64,000 nt of DNA, from NCBI GenBank assembly GCA_032250835.1, contig JAVVEA010000006.1:86049-150048 (forward strand), read 5' to 3'. This stretch comes from a bacterium. Its GTDB lineage: Bacteria; SAR324; XYD2-FULL-50-16. Numbering within the stretch: position 1 is the stretch's first letter; each line of letters starts with the position of its first letter. A model generated the notes under the pieces. That model saw only the letters and a program-made list of their open reading frames with translations, did no database searches and was not told the origin of the DNA. A program made the translations under genes and the position numbers. Positions 3,089 through 63,675 of this stretch are shown piece by piece.

Positions 3089-4026
3089 TCCCAGGTTAAG
3101 ACCAACTTACCGGCCACGTGCCCCTCTTCGCTAGCCTGGACGGCTTGGAGCACCTCGGTAAAGGGGTAGACCTGCGCGATTACTGGGCGCAAAGTTCCTT
3201 CTTCAACCCAAAGGGCTAGTTGGTTTAAATCCTTTAAGCGCGATTCGACCATCACCTGCAACCGTTTTTTGGCGAAGACCAAATTGCGCGGCGGCAGCCA
3301 CAACATCCCCAACAACCCCGCTTGGGTGCTCACATACCGGCCCCCGTGGGCGAGGTGCTTTTGGGCTGGGCCAAAGGGTAGGTTGCCGATGCAGTCGAAG
3401 ATCAAGTCATACTCGGCCAGCAGGCTGGGTAAGGGACCTTTTTGGTAGTCGATCAAGTCAGCGGCCCCTAGGCTGCGCGCCAGCTCAAATTTACCTTGGC
3501 TGCATACCCCCGAGATCATAGAACCGTACGCTTTGGCCACTTGCAGTGCCATCACGCCGACCCCACCCCCACAGCCGTTGACCAGCACCCGCTCCCCATG
3601 CTTGATTTTCGCCTGAGAAACCAGCGCTTGTAGGGCCGTTTGCCCGGTGAGCGGAAGCGCGGCGGCTTCGGCGAAGCTAAGGTTTTTGGGCTTAAGGGCG
3701 ACCATCTCGGGCCCGGCAACCAGTTGCTGGGCGAAGGCACCGCCTTTAAAATAGTTGGTTAGACCGAAGACCTCGTCTCCGGGTTGCAGCCCGGCCTGGG
3801 GCCCCGCGTCGATAACCACCCCGGCAAAGTCACCGCCCAAAATGGCGGGCGGTTGTTTGCCGGTCAGCATCTTAAAATCGCCTTGGCGGATTTTGTTGTC
3901 TACCGGATTGATGGAGCTGGCTTTGACCTCAACCAAGACTTGGTCGGCTCCGGGGCGGGGTGCTTCGGTTTCTTCTAACGACAACACTTCAGGTCCGCCA
4001 TATTGGCGGGAAATTACAGCTAACAT
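3085..4026 (-). CDS. NAD(P)-dependent oxidoreductase (MDR/quinone reductase family)
   Basis: YGGPEVL, SINPVD, GGDFAGVV, VNGCGGGVG, GKLVL. Confidence 0.9.
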   Translation of the reverse strand: MLAVISRQYGGPEVLSLEETEAPRPGADQVLVEVKASSINPVDNKIRQGDFKMLTGKQPPAILGGDFAGVVIDAGPQAGLQPGDEVFGLTNYFKGGAFAQQLVAGPEMVALKPKNLSFAEAAALPLTGQTALQALVSQAKIKHGERVLVNGCGGGVGVMALQVAKAYGSMISGVCSQGKFELARSLGAADLIDYQKGPLPSLLAEYDLIFDCIGNLPFGPAQKHLAHGGRYVSTQAGLLGMLWLPPRNLVFAKKRLQVMVESRLKDLNQLALWVEEGTLRPVIAQVYPFTEVLQAVQASEEGHVAGKLVLTWD

Positions 4027-7281: not shown

Positions 7282-8332
7282 AGCCCAGGCGCTCTGCCGC
7301 TGGTTTGACCAAACCCAACGTCCGCTGCCCTGGCGGGCCGAATATGCCCCCTATCAGGTCTGGATTAGCGAGATCATGGCCCAGCAGACCCGCATGGACC
7401 AGCTGATTCCCTATTACTTGCGGTGGATGAAAGCGCTGCCCGACATAGCCGCCCTGGCGGAGGTGCCTGAAGACCAACTGCTTAAGCTTTGGGAGGGTTT
7501 GGGTTACTACAACCGGGCCCGCAACTTAAAGCTAGCCGCCCAAAAGGTGATGGCCCAGGGCGGCAAATTGCCCATGGGCCGCAAGGAGCTTTTGGACCTG
7601 CCGGGCATCGGCCCCTATACCGCCGGAGCGATTCTTTCGATTGCCTTTAACCAGCCCGAACCCTTGATCGACGGGAATATCGAGCGGGTCTTGGCGCGGC
7701 TCTTGGACCTGGATATAAACCCCAAGACCGCCGCCGGCAAGCGCTACTTTGAAGCCGAAGTGGCGGCCCTGATGCGCGGCTTTGAGCCCCGTAAAGTGGC
7801 CCAGGGGTTGATGGAGCTAGGCGCGCTGGTCTGCTCGCCCACTAACCCCAACTGCGGCGAATGCCCCTGGGGCGGTGACTGCTTGGCCCGCCAAAAGGGA
7901 ACCATCGAGGCCCGCCCAGTCCTGCCGCCGCGCCCTGAAGGGATCAAAGAAAAGCGCTTGGTCTTGGTTTTAGAAGAGTCCGGCCAGTTTTACCTGCTGC
8001 CCCAACCCAAGGGAGCCCGCTGGGGCGGTATGGAATTGTTTTTGATGCCCTTGGTTGAACGCTGGCCCCAAGCCGAGGGCCTAACCGCCCACCTCCCCGA
8101 AGGCGTCGCGTTAGCCGGAACGCCCCAATATCTAGGCGAATTCAGGTATACGGTCACCAAATACCGCGTCCAAGCCCAAGCCTGGCGTATCCCCATAGAC
8201 CGCCGCCCCTCTGGTGGCCTCTGGCTGAGTCTAGAAGAACTAGAAGCCCGCGCCCTACCCCGGCCCGGCGTAAAGACCCGGGAGTTGTTGCGGGGTGCGC
8301 TTAAGCCCCGCAATGCTGTTGCTGCGCTATAG
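7262..8332 (+). CDS. mutY: A/G-specific adenine glycosylase MutY
   Basis: LPWR, WISEIMAQQT, WEGLGYYNRARNL, HhH LPGIGPYTA, Fe-S C-x6-C-x2-C-x5-C. Confidence 0.95.
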   Translation: MNSPESKAQALCRWFDQTQRPLPWRAEYAPYQVWISEIMAQQTRMDQLIPYYLRWMKALPDIAALAEVPEDQLLKLWEGLGYYNRARNLKLAAQKVMAQGGKLPMGRKELLDLPGIGPYTAGAILSIAFNQPEPLIDGNIERVLARLLDLDINPKTAAGKRYFEAEVAALMRGFEPRKVAQGLMELGALVCSPTNPNCGECPWGGDCLARQKGTIEARPVLPPRPEGIKEKRLVLVLEESGQFYLLPQPKGARWGGMELFLMPLVERWPQAEGLTAHLPEGVALAGTPQYLGEFRYTVTKYRVQAQAWRIPIDRRPSGGLWLSLEELEARALPRPGVKTRELLRGALKPRNAVAAL

Positions 8333-8541
8333 GGGTATCGAGAGATTGTCGCGCATAACCTGGGCCCATTTCGGAGCGCCGGGAACCTAATTTCTTCACA
8401 ATCATCTTAAAATCACAATTTATTTTGCGATTTTCTACATTGCGTTGCTTTGTCATTAGATTTTGAATTCTCTATTTATTGCGAAATTCATGGTTTCAAG
8501 GGCAGGCGACTCGAATCAAACACTATTTTTATCTCAGCAGC

Positions 8542-8572
8542 TTGACAATAAAATATCCCTGTGAAATAAGAT
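8542..8572 (+). promoter_or_regulatory. Possible sigma70 promoter for the island operon
   Basis: Perfect TTGACA at 8542-8547; best -10 is TAAGAT at 8567-8572 (19-nt spacer, suboptimal). Confidence 0.3.
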
Positions 8573-8641
8573 AACCGCCTGCGGGATGATTCGATTCCCA
8601 TGGGTTTTTATTGTTTCATTTAACTTTTCAAAAGAGGAAAT

Positions 8642-8677
8642 ATGTACCCACCTGTGATTAAGCCTGAGGCTAAATAA
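8642..8677 (+). CDS. Putative 11-aa precursor/leader peptide MYPPVIKPEAK
   Basis: AAGAGGA immediately upstream, ATG at 8642, TAA at 8675-8677, in-frame stop upstream at 8621; followed by a hairpin and modifying enzymes. Confidence 0.5.
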   Translation: MYPPVIKPEAK

Positions 8678-8688
8678 ATAACCAATAG

Positions 8689-8716
8689 CGTTTAGAGGCA
8701 GTTCCGCCTCTAAACG
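8689..8716 (+). terminator. Perfect 11-bp stem-loop (attenuator/stabiliser) between the small ORF and the oxygenase
   Basis: CGTTTAGAGGC-agttcc-GCCTCTAAACG. Confidence 0.7.
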
Positions 8717-8740
8717 TCTTAATACATTAAAATTCGTGAA

Positions 8741-9358
8741 ATGAACAAGTTGTATGCAGATTTGCAGCACAGGTTCGATGCCGCTGGTTTTTTGATATTG
8801 AAGGGTTCCGAGTTTTATTCCGACGCCCAATGGGAAATTATTGACGGCTATTCAAATCAAGTCAGCTACGAATCAGTCCAGAAGGGGCTGCAGAAAGACT
8901 CCGAATACGCGGCACATGTTGGCCGTATTGTCCTTGATGGGCCCACACCATCGGGAGAATACCTTCAGATCAACGAACCCGAAAACCTAGCCGATTGCAG
9001 CACAGAGCTTTTATGGACGATACTCAATCCTCGAGTACTCGCCGTTACCAGCGCCATTGCCTCCATTGACATCCCCAAGGTTCAAAGGTGCCAATACAAC
9101 CTATTGAGATCTGGGGACCATATCGGAAAACATATCGATGCGCTGCACGGTATTCCCTATGACCTTACCTTTGTACTCGGTCTAGAAGGAGACTACCAAG
9201 GTGGGATTTTTCAGCTTTATGGCCAAACCAACAGTGAGGTCTTTTTCCATAAAATTTCAGAAAAAGACCTAATAATTTTTAAAAGCCCTTTGCTGCATTC
9301 TGTTACCAAAGTATCAAGCGGCAAGAGGAAAACTCTTTGCTTATTTTTGAAAAAATAA
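8741..9358 (+). CDS. 2OG-Fe(II) oxygenase (prolyl-hydroxylase-like)
   Basis: HxD (KHIDA), YQGGIF, distal His and Arg (LLHSVTKVSSGKRKTL). Confidence 0.85.
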   Translation: MNKLYADLQHRFDAAGFLILKGSEFYSDAQWEIIDGYSNQVSYESVQKGLQKDSEYAAHVGRIVLDGPTPSGEYLQINEPENLADCSTELLWTILNPRVLAVTSAIASIDIPKVQRCQYNLLRSGDHIGKHIDALHGIPYDLTFVLGLEGDYQGGIFQLYGQTNSEVFFHKISEKDLIIFKSPLLHSVTKVSSGKRKTLCLFLKK

Positions 9359-9374
9359 ACTGTACGAGGAACCC

Positions 9375-10709
9375 TTGGACTTTATAATTTTTGTTCCCTT
9401 CCCTGACTATTGCTTTAGTCAAGACCCCCCTTGTTTAGGCGCCGGAAGTATCTCTGGTTATTTGAGCAGCAAAGGCTATGAAGCTTCCGTGGTGCCGGTG
9501 ACTAGTGCAGACCTCCCCAATATTTCTCAAAATCAATGTGATATTATCGGGATCAGTATTCTTGAGGATTCTTGGGAACTGGCGCAAAATATCGCCGCAA
9601 TTTATCAAGCTCAAGGTAGCAAGGTAATCGCAGGCGGCGTATTCACCTCAGTTTGCCCAGAGGAGGTACTGCAAAGCGGTCTTTTTGATGCAGTCTGTAT
9701 TGGAGATGGGGAATTAATCGCTCAAGTGTTCATTGAGCAAATTATGTCTGGCAGGCACGAGAACCTTAAAGGTTTGGTCTGGAACGATAAATATTTGGTT
9801 TCTGAGGCTCAGGATTTTTCCTACAACATACAAGAGGATCTTTCGTTATTCCAAAGTTCGGATTTTGGCTACAAATCATTTTTACCCATTAGTTCCTATT
9901 CAGATACTTCTCGAGTCATCTTAACGCCCCCTTCAGGCGACGAAACCGGTGCGACCTGCGAATTTATGTTTTCGCGGGGCTGTGGTTATCGTTGTACCTA
10001 TTGTCACAACTCAAATGAGGCGGTTCAAGACGTTCAATGGCTTCGATTTTACGACCTACGTTGCGTTATTGCTGATATTGAAAGAATCCACCAACAACAC
10101 AATTTGAGTAGAATTTGCATCTTAGACGATGATATTATTTCAAATTATCCCTATTTCCGGCAGTTTGTTGAACTCTATTCTAGCCGGATTCATCTCCCCT
10201 ATAGAGCATTTACTCGACCAGAAAAAATCAATGCCAGAACCGTAAAAATGCTCAAGGACTCGGGGTGCTATTTGATTTCCATGGGTCTGGAATCAGCAAA
10301 TCAAATGATCCGGGAGAAGGTGTTAAACCGGAAGATGTCTACCGAGCGCATAGCAAAAGCAATGCGGTTGTGCCGTGAAAATGGAATCCAAACGATCATC
10401 AACGTAATGATCGGCATTCCAGGTGAAACTGAAGAAGAGATTGAAGAGACGATTTCTTTTTTAGAAGAGAATCGACCTGATTTTGTGTTTGCTTCCATAT
10501 TCACTCCCTATAGGGGAACGAAAATCTACAATATTTGCAAAGAAGCGGGCTGGGATTTGCGAGCTTCAAATACCGGAGGAGTGCAGTACGGGAGCTCAAA
10601 AAATCCCTACTTTGTAGGCAAAGAATCTTATTTGCGGGCCTCTCTTCAGCGGTTGCAACAGCTTTCGCAAGTTCAGCCAATGGTAAGTAGCTGCAAAAGC
10701 ATAAAGTAA
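9375..10709 (+). CDS. Cobalamin-binding radical SAM protein (class B-like)
   Basis: N-terminal B12 domain (PPCLG..ISGYL, IAGGVF, CIGDGE); SRGCGYRCTYC CxxxCxxC; GLES, MIGIPGET, TPYRGT; TTG start with GAGGA SD. Confidence 0.9.
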   Translation: MDFIIFVPFPDYCFSQDPPCLGAGSISGYLSSKGYEASVVPVTSADLPNISQNQCDIIGISILEDSWELAQNIAAIYQAQGSKVIAGGVFTSVCPEEVLQSGLFDAVCIGDGELIAQVFIEQIMSGRHENLKGLVWNDKYLVSEAQDFSYNIQEDLSLFQSSDFGYKSFLPISSYSDTSRVILTPPSGDETGATCEFMFSRGCGYRCTYCHNSNEAVQDVQWLRFYDLRCVIADIERIHQQHNLSRICILDDDIISNYPYFRQFVELYSSRIHLPYRAFTRPEKINARTVKMLKDSGCYLISMGLESANQMIREKVLNRKMSTERIAKAMRLCRENGIQTIINVMIGIPGETEEEIEETISFLEENRPDFVFASIFTPYRGTKIYNICKEAGWDLRASNTGGVQYGSSKNPYFVGKESYLRASLQRLQQLSQVQPMVSSCKSIK

Positions 10710-10833
10710 TCAGTTTGTTGGCTCATCTTGTTTGTATTGTGAAAGGAGCACCAAAAGAGCTATTGGCAAATTTGATAATGCGCCCAAAAACCCATATTAT
10801 ACGGAATCAAAACACCTGTCGGAGCGGTTTCCA

Positions 10834-11574
10834 ATGAATACTTTGGAGTATATATCCTTGAATGAAAGTGACACCATTGATGGTTATCAGTTTTACCAGA
10901 ACTCGTTGGCGGCCGCCAATTGGGGGGAGGAGTTTGTGTGGTCGGGCGATGAACAACTGCCCGAGGAGTTGTTGCAATTTAGCATCGAAGTGGCAAGCCA
11001 GTCTTTTTATGCCGAACAGCTAGGAATGCTTGGGGCCATCAGGTTGACCGAGCGCTGTCAGGACGTGGGCATGCGCATGCATTTGGCCAGCGCGATCATG
11101 GACGAAGCCCGCCACACAAAAGTGTTTTTTGACTATCTTAAAAGTAAAAAATCGACGCCCCAGCCCCCCGCAACACACTGGAATGAGATTAATGGGGAAA
11201 TGGGCTCCGGCAAATCTCATTTGTACGGGTTTTATGCTCATACCATGCTTGAAAACCAAGCCCTTGTCTCCTTTGAATTGTTGCAAAACATATTTTTTCC
11301 ATTTGATTTAGGCAGTGTGTACAAAAAGGTGAAAAATGACGAGGCACGGCACGTAAAAATGGGGATCGAGTTTATCCAGAAACTCTCCTTGGAAACTCCA
11401 AAGCCAAGAGAAACCCTGGTACAAATACATGGAGAGGTTATGGAAAATTGCGGAATTAGTGACGAGGCCTGTCGATACTACGCCAAATATTCAGAGCTAA
11501 GTGATGCGCAAATTAAAGAGAAATTCGTGCACCGTCAGTCTTCAATGCTTAAAGCTGTAACCGGTCTCCCCTAA
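10834..11574 (+). CDS. Ferritin-like diiron protein
   Basis: Repeated E...DEARH / E...DEARH carboxylate-His ligand pattern; ATG at 10834 after GGAG. Confidence 0.8.
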   Translation: MNTLEYISLNESDTIDGYQFYQNSLAAANWGEEFVWSGDEQLPEELLQFSIEVASQSFYAEQLGMLGAIRLTERCQDVGMRMHLASAIMDEARHTKVFFDYLKSKKSTPQPPATHWNEINGEMGSGKSHLYGFYAHTMLENQALVSFELLQNIFFPFDLGSVYKKVKNDEARHVKMGIEFIQKLSLETPKPRETLVQIHGEVMENCGISDEACRYYAKYSELSDAQIKEKFVHRQSSMLKAVTGLP

Positions 11575-12045
11575 ATTTCGGTGACAATCGTTGGGAACCG
11601 CATGGTGCTCCATCTGGCTCTCATCGCAAAACCTATCCGATGTGGGGTCCCGAGAAAGGGCAAAATGTAGTTTGCGCTGGGTCCTTAGTTAGGTGTACCC
11701 TGCTGCAAAAATAAAAGTCTGTGCGGTTCTGGAGGACTCGAAGTTATCTGAGTTGCCCGGAATGATTTGGGCGGTTCCTGTGGATCTTAAGGCCCTGAAG
11801 TTAAAGGAGGTTGTGCGGGTGAAGGACGAGTAACCCAGCCTATAGCCGGTCAGGCCGATTTTCTCAAATGGCGCGGACGAACCCGAAGGCGGCATCCAAT
11901 TCGCATTCATCCTCGCGGCCAGCAAAACCGCCCCCACCTTGCAGCCTGAGACCGGCACTTCTCCTGGGCTGGTATTAGTGGGGGAAGTCGAATTAGCGGA
12001 GAGGATGTCCTTTACTGCTTGCGGTTAGGTGTCTAAAAGCAGTCG

Positions 12046-12318
12046 CTACAATTCCTGCCCGGTCACATGCTTGTGCAAAATCATGCTGATGTATGTTTGG
12101 TAGCCGAGGCCTGCGCGAGCGGCCTTGGCCTTGATCGCTTCTAGGTCGTTTGGGGCCAGGCGGAGATTGACTTTGGCGGACTTCTTTAGGGCTTCGGTGG
12201 CTAGCTTCTTCCAAGTGGCCTTTGAAAATTGAGGGTCCGAAACCCATTCTTCGGTTTCAAGGGATTCCATCAGTTCCGCTTCTTCGGCGTCGAAGGGCTT
12301 TTGATTGGTGTCACTCAT
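12046..12318 (-). CDS. CopG/BrnA-like antitoxin
   Basis: VNLRL..NDLEAIKAKAARAGLGYQTYISMILH ribbon-helix-helix; 4-nt overlap with the toxin gene. Confidence 0.8.
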   Translation of the reverse strand: MSDTNQKPFDAEEAELMESLETEEWVSDPQFSKATWKKLATEALKKSAKVNLRLAPNDLEAIKAKAARAGLGYQTYISMILHKHVTGQEL

Positions 12319-12581
12319 TCTTTAAACCTCTGGTTGTACTTTCGGCTTTTAAAGGCGGTCTTCAGGAAAATCCCCTGGCCGTCTTTTACGTAGGGCACGG
12401 CCCACACGTAGTTTTGACACCAAACCAGCAGAATACGCTGATGGTCCTTGGTAGGATGTTTGATGTCATCTATGGCCGCGTCCAATTGGACTGCTTGGGC
12501 TAATTCCTCAAAGGAAATCCCTCGTTCGGCGATCAACCACTCGTTTTTGTCTTCAGCCCATCGTAGGCAATCGTAGTCCAT
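12315..12581 (-). CDS. BrnT-like (DUF497-type) toxin
   Basis: W.EDKNEWLIAERGISFEE...YVWAVPYV...IFLKTAFKSRK. Confidence 0.8.
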   Translation of the reverse strand: MDYDCLRWAEDKNEWLIAERGISFEELAQAVQLDAAIDDIKHPTKDHQRILLVWCQNYVWAVPYVKDGQGIFLKTAFKSRKYNQRFKE

Positions 12582-12863
12582 GCCTAAATCGTAGGACAAA
12601 AGATAGACATTATCAAGTGGAAACCTAGAGCCCATGTCAGGCGAGTGTCCCAAAGTCTACTCGCTCAATTCGTTTGCCCCTTGCCCAGAGTTCCCGCCCA
12701 AAAGCCGCAGCCTTGCTCGATTTCTTCAGGGTTGCGCCACCCGCAACCTGACCCCCTTACCCGAGCCCCCACCAAACCCCAAAAAGGGTTGTCAAGCCCG
12801 GCGGGTTCTGGTATCAAGGTGGATACTCAAGCCAACAATAACCCTCCTCACCTCTTAGGCCCC

Positions 12864-22329: not shown

Positions 22330-22481
22330 AATATAAGACTCCGGTTGGCCCTTTATTACCGCATTTTGGCCTCTGCTGGCAAGAATCTTTGTGCCCGCGC
22401 CCATTGCTAAGGCAGTTGAAATTGGCTAGGATAGCCAGACTAAAACTTTAAACTTTGAAACCACCTGTGCCCGTAATGCCC

Positions 22482-24562
<2,081 letters not shown>

Positions 24563-58507: not shown

Positions 58508-59680
58508 ATGGCTCCTACTTTTATCAGTCTTTTCTCTGGCTGCGGTGGTCTTGACCTTGGATTCCTCCAAGCTGGATATCAGTCTATCGGTGCTTTTGAC
58601 ATAAATCCAAATGCTTTAGCCGTTCTGCATCAAAACACGAGTAGCCCGGTTTTTGAAACGGATTTGTCAGTATCTCAGCCACCCGCAGTCCTGCTTAAAC
58701 AAGCGGACGTATTTCTATCTGGGTCGCCTTGCCAAGGGTTTTCAACTATTGGGAAACGCCAGTTAAATGATCCGAGGAATCAACTACTTTTGGTTGGTGG
58801 CGATTTGGTACGAAAATATAAACCAAAAATATACGTTTCGGAAAACGTCCCAGGTGCCATAGTCGGGAAGCATCGAGTATATTGGGACCAATTGCACCAA
58901 ATGCTTAAAAGTGCTGGGTACCAGACATACGACTTAAAAGTTAAAGCATCTGATTTCGGGGTTGCACAAGAAAGAAAACGGATTTTTCTGGTGGCTTGGC
59001 GACAAAAAGTCAATTGGAGTTTTCACCTCCCTCAAAACTTAGTAAGCAAGCTTTCTGATGTTCTTTCGAATCTTGAGGGTCTTCCTAACCACGATCCAAA
59101 ACATTTGGCTGAAAACTCGAAACAACATATAATCGCAACAAAAATTCGGCCAGGGCAGAAACTGTGCAACGTGCGTGGAGGGGATAGGGCAGTCCACACG
59201 TGGGATATTCCGGAGGTCTTCGGTAGCGTCACCATGGAGGAAAGGTCCGTACTTGAATCGATGATTCAACTACGAAGGCGTATTCGAGTACGAGATTTTG
59301 GTGATGCAGACCCTGTCCCGACAGAACTGCTTGCAGAAAAATTTGGAGCTTCGGTAATAGAGTCTTTGGAGCAAAAAGAGTACCTTAGGAAGATCGGCAA
59401 AAATCACGACATTACCAGAGCATTTAACGGGAAATTCCGCAGGCTCGACGGGGAAAAACTTTCATACACTGTCGATACGAGGTTCGGAAACCCTAATTTT
59501 TTTTTACACCCTCAAGAGCACAGGGGCCTTACGGTACGTGAAGCCGCTCGAATACAGGGATTCCCTGATGACTTTATCTTTTCCGGTGGCATCAGTGAAC
59601 AATACTCGATTATAGGAAATGCAGTACCGCCTCCGATGGCTAAGTATATTGCAGATTATTTGAAAAACATATTGTTGTAG
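58508..59680 (+). CDS. dcm: DNA (cytosine-5)-methyltransferase
   Basis: Motifs I FSGCGG, IV GSPCQGFS, VI ENV, VIII QERKR, IX REAARIQGFPD, X IGNAVPP. Confidence 0.95.
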   Translation: MAPTFISLFSGCGGLDLGFLQAGYQSIGAFDINPNALAVLHQNTSSPVFETDLSVSQPPAVLLKQADVFLSGSPCQGFSTIGKRQLNDPRNQLLLVGGDLVRKYKPKIYVSENVPGAIVGKHRVYWDQLHQMLKSAGYQTYDLKVKASDFGVAQERKRIFLVAWRQKVNWSFHLPQNLVSKLSDVLSNLEGLPNHDPKHLAENSKQHIIATKIRPGQKLCNVRGGDRAVHTWDIPEVFGSVTMEERSVLESMIQLRRRIRVRDFGDADPVPTELLAEKFGASVIESLEQKEYLRKIGKNHDITRAFNGKFRRLDGEKLSYTVDTRFGNPNFFLHPQEHRGLTVREAARIQGFPDDFIFSGGISEQYSIIGNAVPPPMAKYIADYLKNILL

Positions 59681-59686
59681 ACTCAG

Positions 59687-60646
59687 ATGACAAGCAAACT
59701 TGAAAAATTGCTGCTTTCAGCCGATCCTGAGTTGATTTTAGCTTCCCATCAGGTGGAATTTCTTCAAAACATGCTGTTCGAGGCATATGAACCATGTTTG
59801 CCGCCAAACGCGAGCTTCTCGCATCGGCTTCAAACATGGATAGAAAACTTCAGTCCTACCGATAGTGTTACAATGTACAAGTTCTTAAATAAGCTGTTTT
59901 TTGTGGGGCAGCGTGAGTTTGAAGAGCTTTACAGATACGCCTATAACGGTCCGATAGCTAGGTGGCTGATCGACAAATATTGTATAAAGCTTGATGATCC
60001 TGATGGAGCACGAAAGCTATCAACTGCTGCTCAAGAAACGTGGTTTTGCCCAATTTCCGACAGCTTGAGGATCAATGCATTTTTCCATATTAATAAAATT
60101 TCGGCTTTTGCCGATTTCAGGCCGGATTGGCGTTCTTTAGCGAAATTTTCTGATTTAGAGCGAGTTCAAAGCTATATATCCCAAAAAGGCGTGAAAAATA
60201 TTGTCCTTCTTGAAGATTTTGTTGGTGGCGGTAGTCAGTTGTCAGAAGTGCAAGACGCTCTTTTGGACTATTCTCGTAGTCTCAATATTTTAATTTGCCC
60301 GCTGATTATTTGTCCAGAAGGAGCAAAAAACGTCTCAAAATTATCTAAACGAATATACGTGGATTTTGAGCCTGTACTTATACTAAATGAGCGTGCGTTT
60401 GTTTTCCCCAACCAACACACTAACGAGCTTCCTGAAGCAGCTGAGGTACGAAAGATTATTCTGAAAACTTATCCTAAAGTTAGCTTTGGAAGCCTGCCTG
60501 AGGCTAAACCATACACTGCATTTGGGTTTCAGGAAACAGGCGGGCTAGTAGTAATGTACTCGAATACTCCCGACAATACGCTACCCTGTATTCATCATCT
60601 CTCAGACGAATGGGCCCCTTTGTTTCTTCGTCACAGCCGGGTTTGA
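59687..60646 (+). CDS. Phosphoribosyltransferase-fold protein of conflict-system type
   Basis: PRPP loop IVLLEDFVGGGSQ; C-terminal GF..TGGLVVMYSNTPDNTLP.I....W.PLF.R. Confidence 0.7.
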   Translation: MTSKLEKLLLSADPELILASHQVEFLQNMLFEAYEPCLPPNASFSHRLQTWIENFSPTDSVTMYKFLNKLFFVGQREFEELYRYAYNGPIARWLIDKYCIKLDDPDGARKLSTAAQETWFCPISDSLRINAFFHINKISAFADFRPDWRSLAKFSDLERVQSYISQKGVKNIVLLEDFVGGGSQLSEVQDALLDYSRSLNILICPLIICPEGAKNVSKLSKRIYVDFEPVLILNERAFVFPNQHTNELPEAAEVRKIILKTYPKVSFGSLPEAKPYTAFGFQETGGLVVMYSNTPDNTLPCIHHLSDEWAPLFLRHSRV

Positions 60647-60649
60647 GCT

Positions 60650-62650
60650 ATGATTAATAGAGTAAATCCTTTCCATGATCTATATGCTGGCGACTCAGTC
60701 GATGAAGCAAGTTTTGTAGACTTATTTTCACCGATTTTGGTTGATGATGCTCTTCCATTGTATCAATCGGGCAATGTGGTCTTGCAGGGGCTGCAAGGTA
60801 GCGGGAAAACCATGCTTTTACAGCTTTTACGCCCCAAAGTTAGAATTGCTTACAGTCAAGCAGAAGTACCATTTCCGGTCCCAGGGGAACTTGCCAAGTT
60901 TATCTCTGGGGGAATCAACCTTTCAAAGGCTGGTGTTATCGAGTTCTGTCAGAAAATACAAAGGGAAAGCCCTCCGCGGGATATTGAACTATTAGCTCAG
61001 TATTTCGGGGATTTTATGAATTTTTGGATTGTATATGACATTATCACAACAGTAGAAAAATACTATTCCGCTGATAACCAACAACTGCTGGAAGAAATCG
61101 GCTTGTCTGCTAACGCTCAATGCCTTTCTGCATTTTCCAGACTACTCTCCGCGCATCCCTGTTGGCTTGCCTCGATAAAAAAGACGGATTCACTTCTGGA
61201 TTTGAAGAGCGCTTTGGAATCGCATATTAAAAAGTATCGAAAATTTCTTAACGATCCGTTTAGTGAACTTGATGAATTTGAAGGGGCATTAACAACTATC
61301 GGGATTCCGATTGCGGCGGCGGCAGACTGTTTAAAGCAATCAAAGGTAATATCCAACGATGTTAATGTGCTTGTGAGAATCGACCAATATGAGACGCTTG
61401 GGACGATGAATATTTTAGGGCATAAATTGGGCGATTTATGCCAGGAAGTGGTCCATAAAGCCTTAGCGACCCGCGACACAAAAGTATCTTATCGAGTAGG
61501 TGCAAGACAATATGCTTGGCCCAAGAAACCCAAAATATTTAAATCAGAGGGAAACTTGGAGCACAAGAGGGAGTACTCGATTGTTAGCATCGACGAAATA
61601 GTTCGCCGTTCTGAGAATAGCAAAAGTTGGATATTCCCAAAGCTAGCTGAAGATATTGCCCATAGGCGCTTGCGTTTGAACGGGCTTCAAGACCCATGTA
61701 AAGGCCTACTTGCGAAAATATTCGCAAGCACACCCAGAGCTGGCGAGAAAGCTAAAAAAATAATAAAAGACAAGTCAAAACGACCGGGCATTATTAAGTT
61801 TGATCAAAATTGGCCTGACAAATGGAGTCATTTTTTGTTCGATCTTGCGCAGGAGGATATTCTTGCGGCTAAATTTGCTGACGCGTGGGTAAGGCAGAAA
61901 AGTGGAAAGGCGAAGAAACAAGAAGTTCTTGAGAAAATACCTTATCAAAAACCGTATCCTTGGGATGCTCGGTACTGGCAAAAAGAACGTGTAAATCAGG
62001 CTCTAGTCCAAATTGCATCCAGGCACAAGCAAAGACCCTTGTGGTACGGCAAGGAAGACGTTTTGGGTGTTAGCGGTGGTTGTATTTTAACTTTCATTTT
62101 GCTTTGCAAACATATTTGGGACCGTTGGCTTCAGCTCAATAGGCTAAGAGAGGCATCTGAATTGGAATTTCCAATTCCATCAAATATCCAAAATTTGGGG
62201 ATACTTTCTGCAAGTGAAGAATCATTGGCTAGACTTCCAGAAGGACAAAATGCAACCATGAGGCAGCAGTTTATTAAATTCCTCGGAAATCGATATTACC
62301 AACATCTAACAAATGACAGCTCGATGTCCAATCCTGGACACACGGGTTTTTCTATTTATCCAGAAGACTTGGCCGGCGAAGACAGGATAAGACGTTTTCT
62401 TGAGCATGCTGTGGATTGTGGAGACCTCTATTCTGCGGAACACGCGTGTAAAAGAATAAAAGGTAGGAAACGATTGAAATATTACTTGGCACCTATTTTT
62501 TGTCCTTCGTTTAAAATCCCATACCAGCGGACGAAAGAACCAGAATATATTAGAATTGGCGAGTTGGACGCATGGCTGGAAGCCGCTTCCAATAACATAT
62601 TATATGACAATGAGCGTACGAACCCCAATCAGCTTTCATTTTTTGACTAA
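60650..62650 (+). CDS. Large P-loop ATPase (ORC/CDC6/STAND-like)
   Basis: N-terminal NPF; Walker A GLQGSGKT; Walker B-like VLVRIDQYE; long helical C-terminal region. Confidence 0.75.
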   Translation: MINRVNPFHDLYAGDSVDEASFVDLFSPILVDDALPLYQSGNVVLQGLQGSGKTMLLQLLRPKVRIAYSQAEVPFPVPGELAKFISGGINLSKAGVIEFCQKIQRESPPRDIELLAQYFGDFMNFWIVYDIITTVEKYYSADNQQLLEEIGLSANAQCLSAFSRLLSAHPCWLASIKKTDSLLDLKSALESHIKKYRKFLNDPFSELDEFEGALTTIGIPIAAAADCLKQSKVISNDVNVLVRIDQYETLGTMNILGHKLGDLCQEVVHKALATRDTKVSYRVGARQYAWPKKPKIFKSEGNLEHKREYSIVSIDEIVRRSENSKSWIFPKLAEDIAHRRLRLNGLQDPCKGLLAKIFASTPRAGEKAKKIIKDKSKRPGIIKFDQNWPDKWSHFLFDLAQEDILAAKFADAWVRQKSGKAKKQEVLEKIPYQKPYPWDARYWQKERVNQALVQIASRHKQRPLWYGKEDVLGVSGGCILTFILLCKHIWDRWLQLNRLREASELEFPIPSNIQNLGILSASEESLARLPEGQNATMRQQFIKFLGNRYYQHLTNDSSMSNPGHTGFSIYPEDLAGEDRIRRFLEHAVDCGDLYSAEHACKRIKGRKRLKYYLAPIFCPSFKIPYQRTKEPEYIRIGELDAWLEAASNNILYDNERTNPNQLSFFD

Positions 62651-62658
62651 CTAGGCAA

Positions 62659-63675
62659 ATGCTCAACTATGGATTCAGGCCATGGGGATTACTTCCATGG
62701 GTCGCAGGAAGACTTTCAAATAAGAACTGGGACCTTATTGGGTGCCTAAGCGCGGAGGACCGCTGTAAAGGGGTGCTTGACAGTTGCAATGAGGCGACAT
62801 TGAAGGTTTGTGCAAATTTCATTGAGGTGACAAATCCAGACACAAAATACGAAGAGAAAGCTGAGGTGAAGCGAAATGGACTAAGATCGGAAATGATCAA
62901 CTCATATGATGTGGCTAGTTCTTCATTTTCATCAATGCAACTATTCGAATCACCACAGAAACTAACTCTGTGGTTTAAAGACTTTATAAGAAAGACAAAT
63001 GGAAGCGTATTGATTGATATATCTTGTTTTCCTAAACGTTACTTTTTCCCTTTGGTAAAATGGTTAGTGGAAAATGACGCAGTTGAAAACTTGATTGTCT
63101 CATATACGATCCCAAAAGACTATCCGGAGCCTAGTTTAGCATTCGATTCCGGTTCAAAACATTTCCTTCCCGCGTTCCAAAATGTTGATCATCCAGTATT
63201 GGAGGAAGTTGGAATTTTAAGTGTTGGCTTTCTTTCATTCGATTTGGCGAACCTGCTCAAAGGAAGCTTTCCTAATACAAAGCCAAAAAACTTCTATCTC
63301 TTATTTCCATTTCCTCCCGGACCGCCAAACTATCAAAAAAACTGGGAATTTGTTCGAGATATAGAAAGTTCAGGCAAACTACAAAATTCGAAACAAATTA
63401 TTCGAATAGCCACAAAAGACGTTCCAGGTTGCTTTGAGCATATCAAAAATATTGCATCAGGAATGGAAAACAGGACGTTTTTTTTGCCTTTCGGGCCTAA
63501 AACGCATTCATTAGCAATCTGCCTTTATTCCATACTCCACGGCAACTCAGTCTATTATACTCAGCCGAAGTACTATCACCCGGACTATAGCGTTGGTATC
63601 AATTCCAAAGAGGGGTTCACCGAGACGTATGGGTATTGTTTGAAACTTGCGGGCAATAACCTCTACGGGGATTAG
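62659..63675 (+). CDS. Hypothetical protein with duplicated CARF-like Rossmann motifs
   Basis: VLIDISCFPK and FFLPFGPK..SLA, each followed by a helix and a YT strand. Confidence 0.6.
   Translation: MLNYGFRPWGLLPWVAGRLSNKNWDLIGCLSAEDRCKGVLDSCNEATLKVCANFIEVTNPDTKYEEKAEVKRNGLRSEMINSYDVASSSFSSMQLFESPQKLTLWFKDFIRKTNGSVLIDISCFPKRYFFPLVKWLVENDAVENLIVSYTIPKDYPEPSLAFDSGSKHFLPAFQNVDHPVLEEVGILSVGFLSFDLANLLKGSFPNTKPKNFYLLFPFPPGPPNYQKNWEFVRDIESSGKLQNSKQIIRIATKDVPGCFEHIKNIASGMENRTFFLPFGPKTHSLAICLYSILHGNSVYYTQPKYYHPDYSVGINSKEGFTETYGYCLKLAGNNLYGD

Follow-up and report, generated by a model that had tools for sequence, protein, structure and literature searches.

A candidate leaderless RiPP precursor gene heading a three-enzyme cluster with a predicted ferritin-like dimetal-carboxylate enzyme

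Introduction

Among ferritin-like dimetal enzymes, class I RNR R2 is associated with tyrosyl-radical chemistry and R2lox with the formation of a Tyr–Val ether; we know of no R2lox, R2 or other ferritin-like diiron oxygenase that acts on a separate ribosomal peptide. The microcin C precursor, MccA, ends in a C-terminal Asn, and its very short, leaderless gene comes first, followed by a hairpin and then by the enzyme genes. The short mccA transcript is in about 20-fold excess (PMC4231749). In the biarylitides, with which the RiPP arm of rufomycin biosynthesis is considered here, an ultra-short precursor with a Tyr near its N-terminus (BytA, MxYxH) is paired with one class-defining metalloenzyme, a P450, and for rufomycin the release of a modified Tyr is described (PMC12002111). 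The clavusporin precursor is beta-methylated by a B12 radical SAM enzyme and its DUF5825 partner (MpcB and MpcC, TIGR03975); mpc clusters have an S9 peptidase, and the words ferritin and diiron have no occurrence in the main text of the preprint (bioRxiv 10.1101/2024.01.23.576971). The helical-bundle oxidase VarO of thiovarsolin biosynthesis is genetically linked to RiPP tailoring, as FL described below appears to be, but is HO-like rather than ferritin-like, acts as an Arg desaturase, belongs to a YcaO/TfuA cluster and is accessory rather than class-defining (PMC6511847). A 2026 review cites the paper on HO-like VarO for the modification of ribosomal peptides by such enzymes.

It is the signature enzyme that defines a RiPP class, and in the searchable literature (most subscription journals and supplements lie outside it) no paper was found that reports a ferritin-like, R2-type dimetal enzyme as a RiPP maturase.

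The DNA analysed here, referred to as the window, is a stretch of 64 000 nt from a bacterium of the SAR324 lineage (contig JAVVEA010000006.1, positions 86 049 to 150 048). Within it, a candidate peptide gene encoding MYPPVIKPEAK heads three co-directional genes for a 2OG-Fe(II) oxygenase, a B12-binding radical SAM enzyme and a ferritin-like protein, hereafter FL (table 1). The layout is that of microcin C, a very short leaderless gene, a hairpin and then the enzymes; unlike that system, the cluster has neither a peptide with a C-terminal Asn nor an MccB-type adenylyltransferase, and relies on metalloenzymes of oxidative and radical kinds. When the three genes were scanned against Pfam and NCBIfam, neither an adenylyltransferase of this type nor a P450 was detected. 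The peptide resembles the biarylitide precursors in its extreme shortness and early Tyr but contains no His, and it has no second aromatic residue, so that a biaryl link is not expected; the enzyme shared among the related clusters is FL. With the clavusporin clusters the window has in common a B12 radical SAM enzyme and a peptide rich in Pro, Val and Ile. Its radical SAM enzyme, however, scores far below the TIGR03975 cut-off (56.4 against 281.85 bits), and it has no DUF5825 partner.

Table 1. Positions in the window of the candidate peptide gene, its signals and the genes that follow.
Feature	Coordinates	Strand	Remarks
Possible sigma-70-type promoter	TTGACA 8542–8547, TAAGAT 8567–8572	+	19-nt spacer; weak, read by eye
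Shine–Dalgarno AAGAGGA	8632–8638	+	after an A/U-rich stretch; GAGG 8634–8637, 4 nt before ATG
Candidate leaderless RiPP precursor MYPPVIKPEAK	8642–8677	+	ATG 8642, TAA ends 8677; single Tyr at position 2
Stem-loop	8688–8717	+	11 Watson–Crick pairs, 8689–8699/8706–8716; 6-nt loop
2OG-Fe(II) oxygenase, candidate accessory tailoring enzyme	8741–9358	+	PF13640, 31.9 bits (cut-off 27); HID at 131, H-x9-R from 186
B12-binding radical SAM enzyme, candidate C-methyltransferase	9375–10709	+	PF02310 and PF04055; CxxxCxxC at 203
Predicted ferritin-like dimetal-carboxylate enzyme (FL)	10834–11574	+	start may be TTG 10858; no Pfam match over cut-off
BrnT/BrnA-like type II toxin–antitoxin pair	12046–12653	−	BrnT match below cut-off (E = 1.7e-4); CopG antitoxin match at E = 8e-9

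The candidate peptide gene and its hairpin

An initial annotation of this DNA had described an AAGAGGA motif, an 11-codon ORF and, 24 nt 5' of the oxygenase start, a perfect 11-bp stem that lacked a long U-tract; motif, ORF and stem were all recovered at the same positions (table 1). It had also noted a Shine–Dalgarno spacing of about 4 nt as being short. The gap is indeed 4 nt, and this proved no cause for concern, since no other GAGG–ATG gap is as frequent among the long ORFs of this genome (70 of 325 starts, chosen by a rough rule). No in-frame start was found 5' of the ATG. As in RiPP systems, a short ORF with a ribosome-binding site is clustered with putative modifying enzymes; the leader that is usual, though not universal, in RiPP precursors is missing from a peptide of 11 residues with its Tyr at position 2. 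No ORF for a protease or transporter was found within 8333–12650 of the window. The possible promoter was not called by the promoter scanner, which accepts spacers of 16–18 nt. Just 3' of it lies a second, weaker stem-loop (8577–8605, + strand), which could serve as a 5' stabiliser of a short transcript.

The stem begins 11 nt after the stop codon and is lengthened by a G–U pair to 12 bp (−19.1 kcal/mol); the sequence that follows it is TCTTAATACA. The surrounding 221-nt region folds with z = −3.71, and none of 200 shuffles was equally stable. By itself the hairpin is unremarkable, because the 3.66-Mb genome holds 79 perfect hairpins of at least 11 bp. When the 408-nt intergenic region was shuffled 1000 times with its dinucleotide composition kept, a hairpin alone arose in 53 of the shuffles and the combination of a Shine–Dalgarno sequence, an ORF of 5–60 aa and a hairpin in 3. 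With the hairpin required within 60 nt, 225 occurrences of this cassette were counted on the 7.3 Mb of both strands, or 0.12 per 4 kb; two of the 225 were ATG-started, at most 15 aa long and with a Tyr within the first four residues, a filter chosen after the peptides of the relatives had been seen.

Since the U-tract is missing, the hairpin is proposed to act as a leaky terminator or as a 3' stabiliser and exonuclease barrier, either of which would give excess precursor mRNA. No Rfam match was obtained in 8200–12800 at E values up to 1. The hairpin does not belong to a genomic repeat: two matches of 14–15 nt on contig C17 lie in coding or non-hairpin context. On the − strand the same hairpin (8689–8716) was scored as terminator-like and might also halt antisense transcription. 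Separately, a single REP-like palindromic element, one arm T-rich and the other A-rich, accounts for 13 of the 79 perfect hairpins; its copies, frequently arranged as inverted pairs, are located on host-genome contigs C10, C13, C15, C22, C33 and C38.

The ferritin-like enzyme and its family

The structure of FL was predicted with a pLDDT of 93.9 and has an R2/R2lox-like four-helix ferritin fold. Foldseek gave a TM score of 0.76 to R2lox, and structural alignment gave Z scores of 22.6 for R2, 22.2 for R2lox and 21.9 for ToMO, with an rmsd to R2 of 3.1 over 238 residues. The top structural matches listed are ferritin-superfamily proteins, with no HO-like protein among them; kinship to such proteins may nonetheless exist. 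A ligand set of four Glu and two His (E...ExxH...E...ExxH; E53, E83, H86, E132, E162 and H165, numbered from TTG 10858) is invariant in 40 of 40 aligned sequences. By its modelled fold and this ligand set, FL is predicted to be a ferritin-like dimetal-carboxylate enzyme, sharing both with R2, R2lox and other ferritin-like diiron oxygenases. It differs from them in sequence: identity to the structural matches is only 12–17%, the NCBIfam R2lox model scores 21.9 bits against a cut-off of 194, and no Pfam or NCBIfam cut-off is passed.

An exhaustive phmmer search returned 128 matches to this family of proteins of approximately 250 aa, 50 of them at E ≤ 1e-10. The nearest, P0108 from a plasmid of Trichormus variabilis NIES-23, is about 40% identical. 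When a profile built from 40 members was run against fetched loci, 25 scored 204–294 bits and 152 scored below 110; the 25 include the window's own locus, leaving 24 non-self, and three of the family loci are themselves in the profile. A contig-end fragment (L104, 122 bits) was kept out of both sets, and ferritin-like proteins of approximately 375 aa from PKS/NRPS clusters (L180 and L181), which are without the cassette, were used as the outgroup. In a tree of 60 rows (54 family and 6 outgroup, with 4 of 10 streptomycete loci and one of a duplicate pair), the window's FL has a long branch (1.18) and falls in a supported 14-row clade (100/96) with three FLs from clusters whose peptides begin MDYQPLA and with no FL of the leader type described below; DNA context within this clade covers the window and these three members only.

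Word-indexed homologue searches returned only the window's own oxygenase and FL. Viral contigs yielded only distant ferritin-like genes, phages and Escherichia coli genomes yielded no match, and a search that took L090 as the centre of the family led to proteins of an unrelated group (0 of 27). FL was found neither in 30 relatives nor in 87 other genomes of the phylum that were searched.

Conservation of the cassette across FL loci

Of the 24 non-self FL-family loci, all at 200 bits or more, 21 had a cassette, and in every one of these the ORF contained a Tyr; the rule had been loosened after a stricter first pass gave 20 of 24, and the loci are redundant (10 are streptomycete loci, one pair is a duplicate and two of the Pantoea plasmids are close to each other), so that they represent approximately 10 independent peptide types. 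The scan reached from 2600 nt 5' of FL to 600 nt 3' of it. Three loci were misses: in L067 and L070 a Tyr ORF led by a Shine–Dalgarno sequence can be made out by eye with an imperfect hairpin, and at L097 the contig ends 160 nt upstream of FL. Among the 152 outgroup loci, 15 had a cassette, 6 of them with a Tyr, and the count was 9 of 92 for those with full flanks. Where two short ORFs competed, the peptide with the better Shine–Dalgarno sequence was taken, and starts were chosen by the same measure. On this basis each of the 24 candidate peptides, MYPPVIKPEAK among them, has exactly one Tyr; for ten unrelated peptides the chance of this is 1e-5, a rough and post hoc figure. What follows the Tyr differs in composition from peptide to peptide and is 4 to 33 residues long, and Y-x-P or Y-x-x-P recurs in several peptides.

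The oxygenase does not behave in this way. No homologue of it was found in 18 FL-family loci searched, no close homologue was found at all, and its three distant homologues on plasmids, which lie in small-molecule-type clusters, had a cassette in none of three cases. The sequence comparisons thus indicate that the cassette travels with FL and not with the oxygenase, and that Tyr is the one invariant residue. The initial annotation had matched the three prolines to the prolyl-hydroxylase-like neighbour, and had proposed conservation upstream of oxygenase homologues as a check; these counts do not support prolines and oxygenase as the core of the system, and the check as it was worded fails. Its proposal of a very short RiPP precursor, a hairpin and then enzymes fared better, being supported by the same layout and by codon-level conservation of the peptide in related clusters.

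A leaderless branch is found in plasmid clusters of Pantoea agglomerans, P. ananatis and Xenorhabdus, which encode an MFS protein, FL, a hypothetical protein of 200 aa that matches a hydroxylase weakly, a fatty-acid-hydroxylase-family protein and a reductase. In these, a Shine–Dalgarno sequence, MDYQPLAV or MDYQPLAS, and a hairpin of 13–14 bp stand immediately 5' of the first gene, as in the window. Between the Xenorhabdus and Pantoea peptide genes three codons are identical, three differ synonymously and one non-synonymously; identity is 21 of 27 positions in the ORF against 7 of 27 upstream, and the hairpin shows one clear compensatory change, C–G to U–A, among only three sequences. Twenty viral matches to the MDYQPLA pattern were set aside as chance by the look of their starts and read-through. 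For four motifs taken from the peptides of the family, the searchable literature (supplements lie outside it) yielded no paper that contains them, and literature searches gave no link to the Pantoea Natural Product clusters, which had also been considered. The MDYQPLA-type clusters L064 and L065 adjoin an integrative conjugative element (Pantoea) or lie amid transposase genes (Xenorhabdus), from which the family is judged to be mobile.

In the other 20 loci the cassette is placed just 3' of FL and the peptides are of leader type, with 21–50 aa, a Lys-rich start, a variable tail and the Tyr at position 16–18 in 20 of 20. Like the clavusporin clusters, these loci encode a TIGR03975-like B12 radical SAM enzyme (14 of 14 examined) and a DUF5825-like partner (11 of 14), and the radical SAM enzymes of L068 and L101, both of which also have the DUF5825 partner, pass the curated cut-off of this RiPP-maturase model (596 and 572 against 282 bits). 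Synonymous changes outnumber non-synonymous ones in further peptide-gene pairs (7 to 4, 8 to 5, and 4–5 to 1–2 in four of five streptomycete pairs); one streptomycete pair is reversed (2 to 6), the one exception among seven pairs. A predicted complex of the L101 FL with its 33-aa peptide and two Fe scored 0.11 against a mark of 0.32 and weighs neither way. Most relatives have an exporter and a reductase, both of which the window's island lacks. Individual loci have features of their own: in L102 the FL frame (3101–4021) overruns the whole peptide ORF (3897–4010) in another frame; downstream in L069 and L101 is a beta-lactamase-fold hydrolase, a candidate peptidase (Pfam-scored for L101 only); and upstream in L099 (4239–6846) are a class III aminotransferase and a GNAT acetyltransferase.

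Across the FL family the precursor is therefore conserved as a protein. MYPPVIKPEAK itself shares with the others only the layout, the single Tyr and the clade of its FL, and the likeness of MYPPV to MDYQPL extends only to Y-x-P plus a hydrophobic residue. The exact peptide was seen once, a second copy being absent from the collections searched, and no second example of the same three-gene combination was found. Because its FL shares a clade with the MDYQPLA-type FLs and with no leader-type FL, the window most plausibly represents a second type of leaderless cluster, one that has tailoring enzymes of its own.

Interpretation of the cluster

From these comparisons MYPPVIKPEAK is very likely a RiPP precursor, a judgement that includes the possibility, weighed below, that it serves as a disposable carrier. 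The best single reading, and in our view a probable one, is that it is the leaderless precursor of the three-enzyme cluster and that FL oxidises Tyr2. One transcript would begin upstream of the peptide gene, and the hairpin would end or protect most transcripts just past it, so that peptide would exceed enzyme, by analogy with mccA. FL is proposed to act on the Tyr because it is the only enzyme common to all clusters and Tyr is the only invariant residue; this class-defining step would most likely be an O2-dependent oxidation of the ring or side chain, through a tyrosyl radical or a peroxo-dimetal species. The B12 radical SAM enzyme, whose matches are generic and at most 32% identical, would then most likely C-methylate, and the 2OG oxygenase would hydroxylate unactivated carbons, either at the beta position of Tyr or in Pro, Val, Ile or Lys, as judged from the chemistry of their families. 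Host peptidases are proposed to trim the product, since the island has neither a protease nor an exporter. The reductase of most relatives hints at a carbonyl product.

The peptide could instead be a disposable carrier from which FL and the other enzymes modify and excise the Tyr or its side chain, giving a small Tyr-derived product. That only the Tyr is invariant while the sequence after it varies would suit such a role, as would the make-up of most clusters, which have no dedicated protease but do have an SDR or Gfo/Idh/MocA reductase, suggestive of a carbonyl intermediate. There are precedents as well: RufO nitrates the Tyr of MRYLH and RufB frees 3-nitrotyrosine (PMC12002111), and CADD, a dimetal enzyme, removes the side chain of a Tyr within a protein (PMC13108848). 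However, the window has no reductase, and the recurrence of Y-x-P and Y-x-x-P together with widely differing tailoring sets fits decoration borne on the peptide, and we consider a carrier rather unlikely. It is improbable that the window's ORF is a chance or decayed remnant, beside enzymes acting on a free amino acid or small molecule or in a dead cluster. The single occurrence of the exact peptide, the appearance of cassettes by chance in about one-tenth of outgroup loci, the absence of an exporter and the small-molecule-type setting of the oxygenase homologues would all be explained in this way. The ORF nevertheless forms the only cassette near the window's FL, with a modal Shine–Dalgarno gap and a single Tyr, in the same place as the Pantoea and Xenorhabdus peptides directly before the first gene, and the frames of all three enzymes are intact with their catalytic motifs present.

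A regulatory leader containing Pro-Pro had been offered in the initial annotation as the alternative to a substrate. Stalling at the Pro-Pro or Tyr codons would then control read-through of the hairpin, which lies 11 nt past the stop, and ribosome binding does control termination after mccA (PMC4231749). Such a role without a substrate function is very unlikely here: Pro-Pro is missing from most of the related peptides, most of them sit mid-operon, and those of the leader type have an enzyme gene on either side and members of a known RiPP methyltransferase family as neighbours. One Tyr codon would also make a poor amino-acid sensor, the folds computed contain no antiterminator that rivals the hairpin, and ribosome-coupled control would in any case be compatible with a substrate role. 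Least credible, and scarcely to be entertained, is the reading in which the oxygenase is the defining enzyme, hydroxylating the three prolines, with FL incidental. It takes its appeal from the PF13640 match, the three Pro in 11 residues and the adjacency of the two genes. PF13640 is nevertheless a broad family, the HxD...H...R motif is common to 2OG oxygenases in general, and the best matches among solved structures, a hydroxylase of PKHD type and an uncharacterised oxidoreductase (6N1F, E 0.0016), are weak; a model of the oxygenase predicted from its sequence alone (pLDDT 34.5) was unusable. It is FL, moreover, that the cassette tracks. Hydroxylation of Pro could occur as an accessory step, with nothing that singles Pro out.

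Returning to the leaderless precursor whose Tyr2 is oxidised by FL, we lean, somewhat less firmly, towards a wider proposal in which the window carries the minimal form of an undescribed RiPP class. Its R2-like ferritin dimetal enzyme would oxidise, cross-link or excise a single Tyr, and its members would fall into a leaderless branch (8–11 aa) and a leader-type branch (21–50 aa) in Actinomycetota, Bacillota, Pseudomonadota and the window's lineage. FL with a tiny one-Tyr peptide gene and a hairpin apparently constitutes an undescribed family of bacterial clusters and may amount to a new RiPP class. Annotation overlooks it, since its peptides have 8–50 aa and FL lies under every Pfam and NCBIfam cut-off. 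The family is sparse yet taxonomically wide and mobile, occurring on plasmids, at the flank of an integrative conjugative element and in a chromosomal island. If the proposal is true, the post-translational modification of peptides would join the known reactions of ferritin-like diiron oxygenases, and a new bioactive compound derived from Tyr could result. Substrate and target residue are sharply predicted, and with small clusters and several hosts in culture the chemistry is directly testable by co-expression.

Genomic setting of the island

The GC content of the island is 0.43–0.46, against 0.56–0.61 in mutY, hisS and hemA. Since mutY is followed by hisS within about 220–330 nt in two of seven relatives' loci examined, the 4.5-kb stretch between these genes in the window, which includes the BrnT/BrnA-like pair, is taken to be an insertion. 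No att-like repeat was found flanking it. The toxin–antitoxin pair is not regarded as part of the peptide cluster and may stabilise the island.

Elsewhere in the host genome, six B12-radical-SAM homologues occur within approximately 57 kb of contig C22 (about 8000–65200), which looks like a large radical-SAM biosynthetic region. A second low-GC stretch of the window (0.42–0.46, positions 58508–63675), possibly a defence island, starts with a putative DNA cytosine methyltransferase ORF, judged from its motif, ahead of three long unannotated ORFs. At 22404–22688 of the window, a long leader precedes a gene presumed from its translation to be thiC-like, and a TPP riboswitch is likely there.
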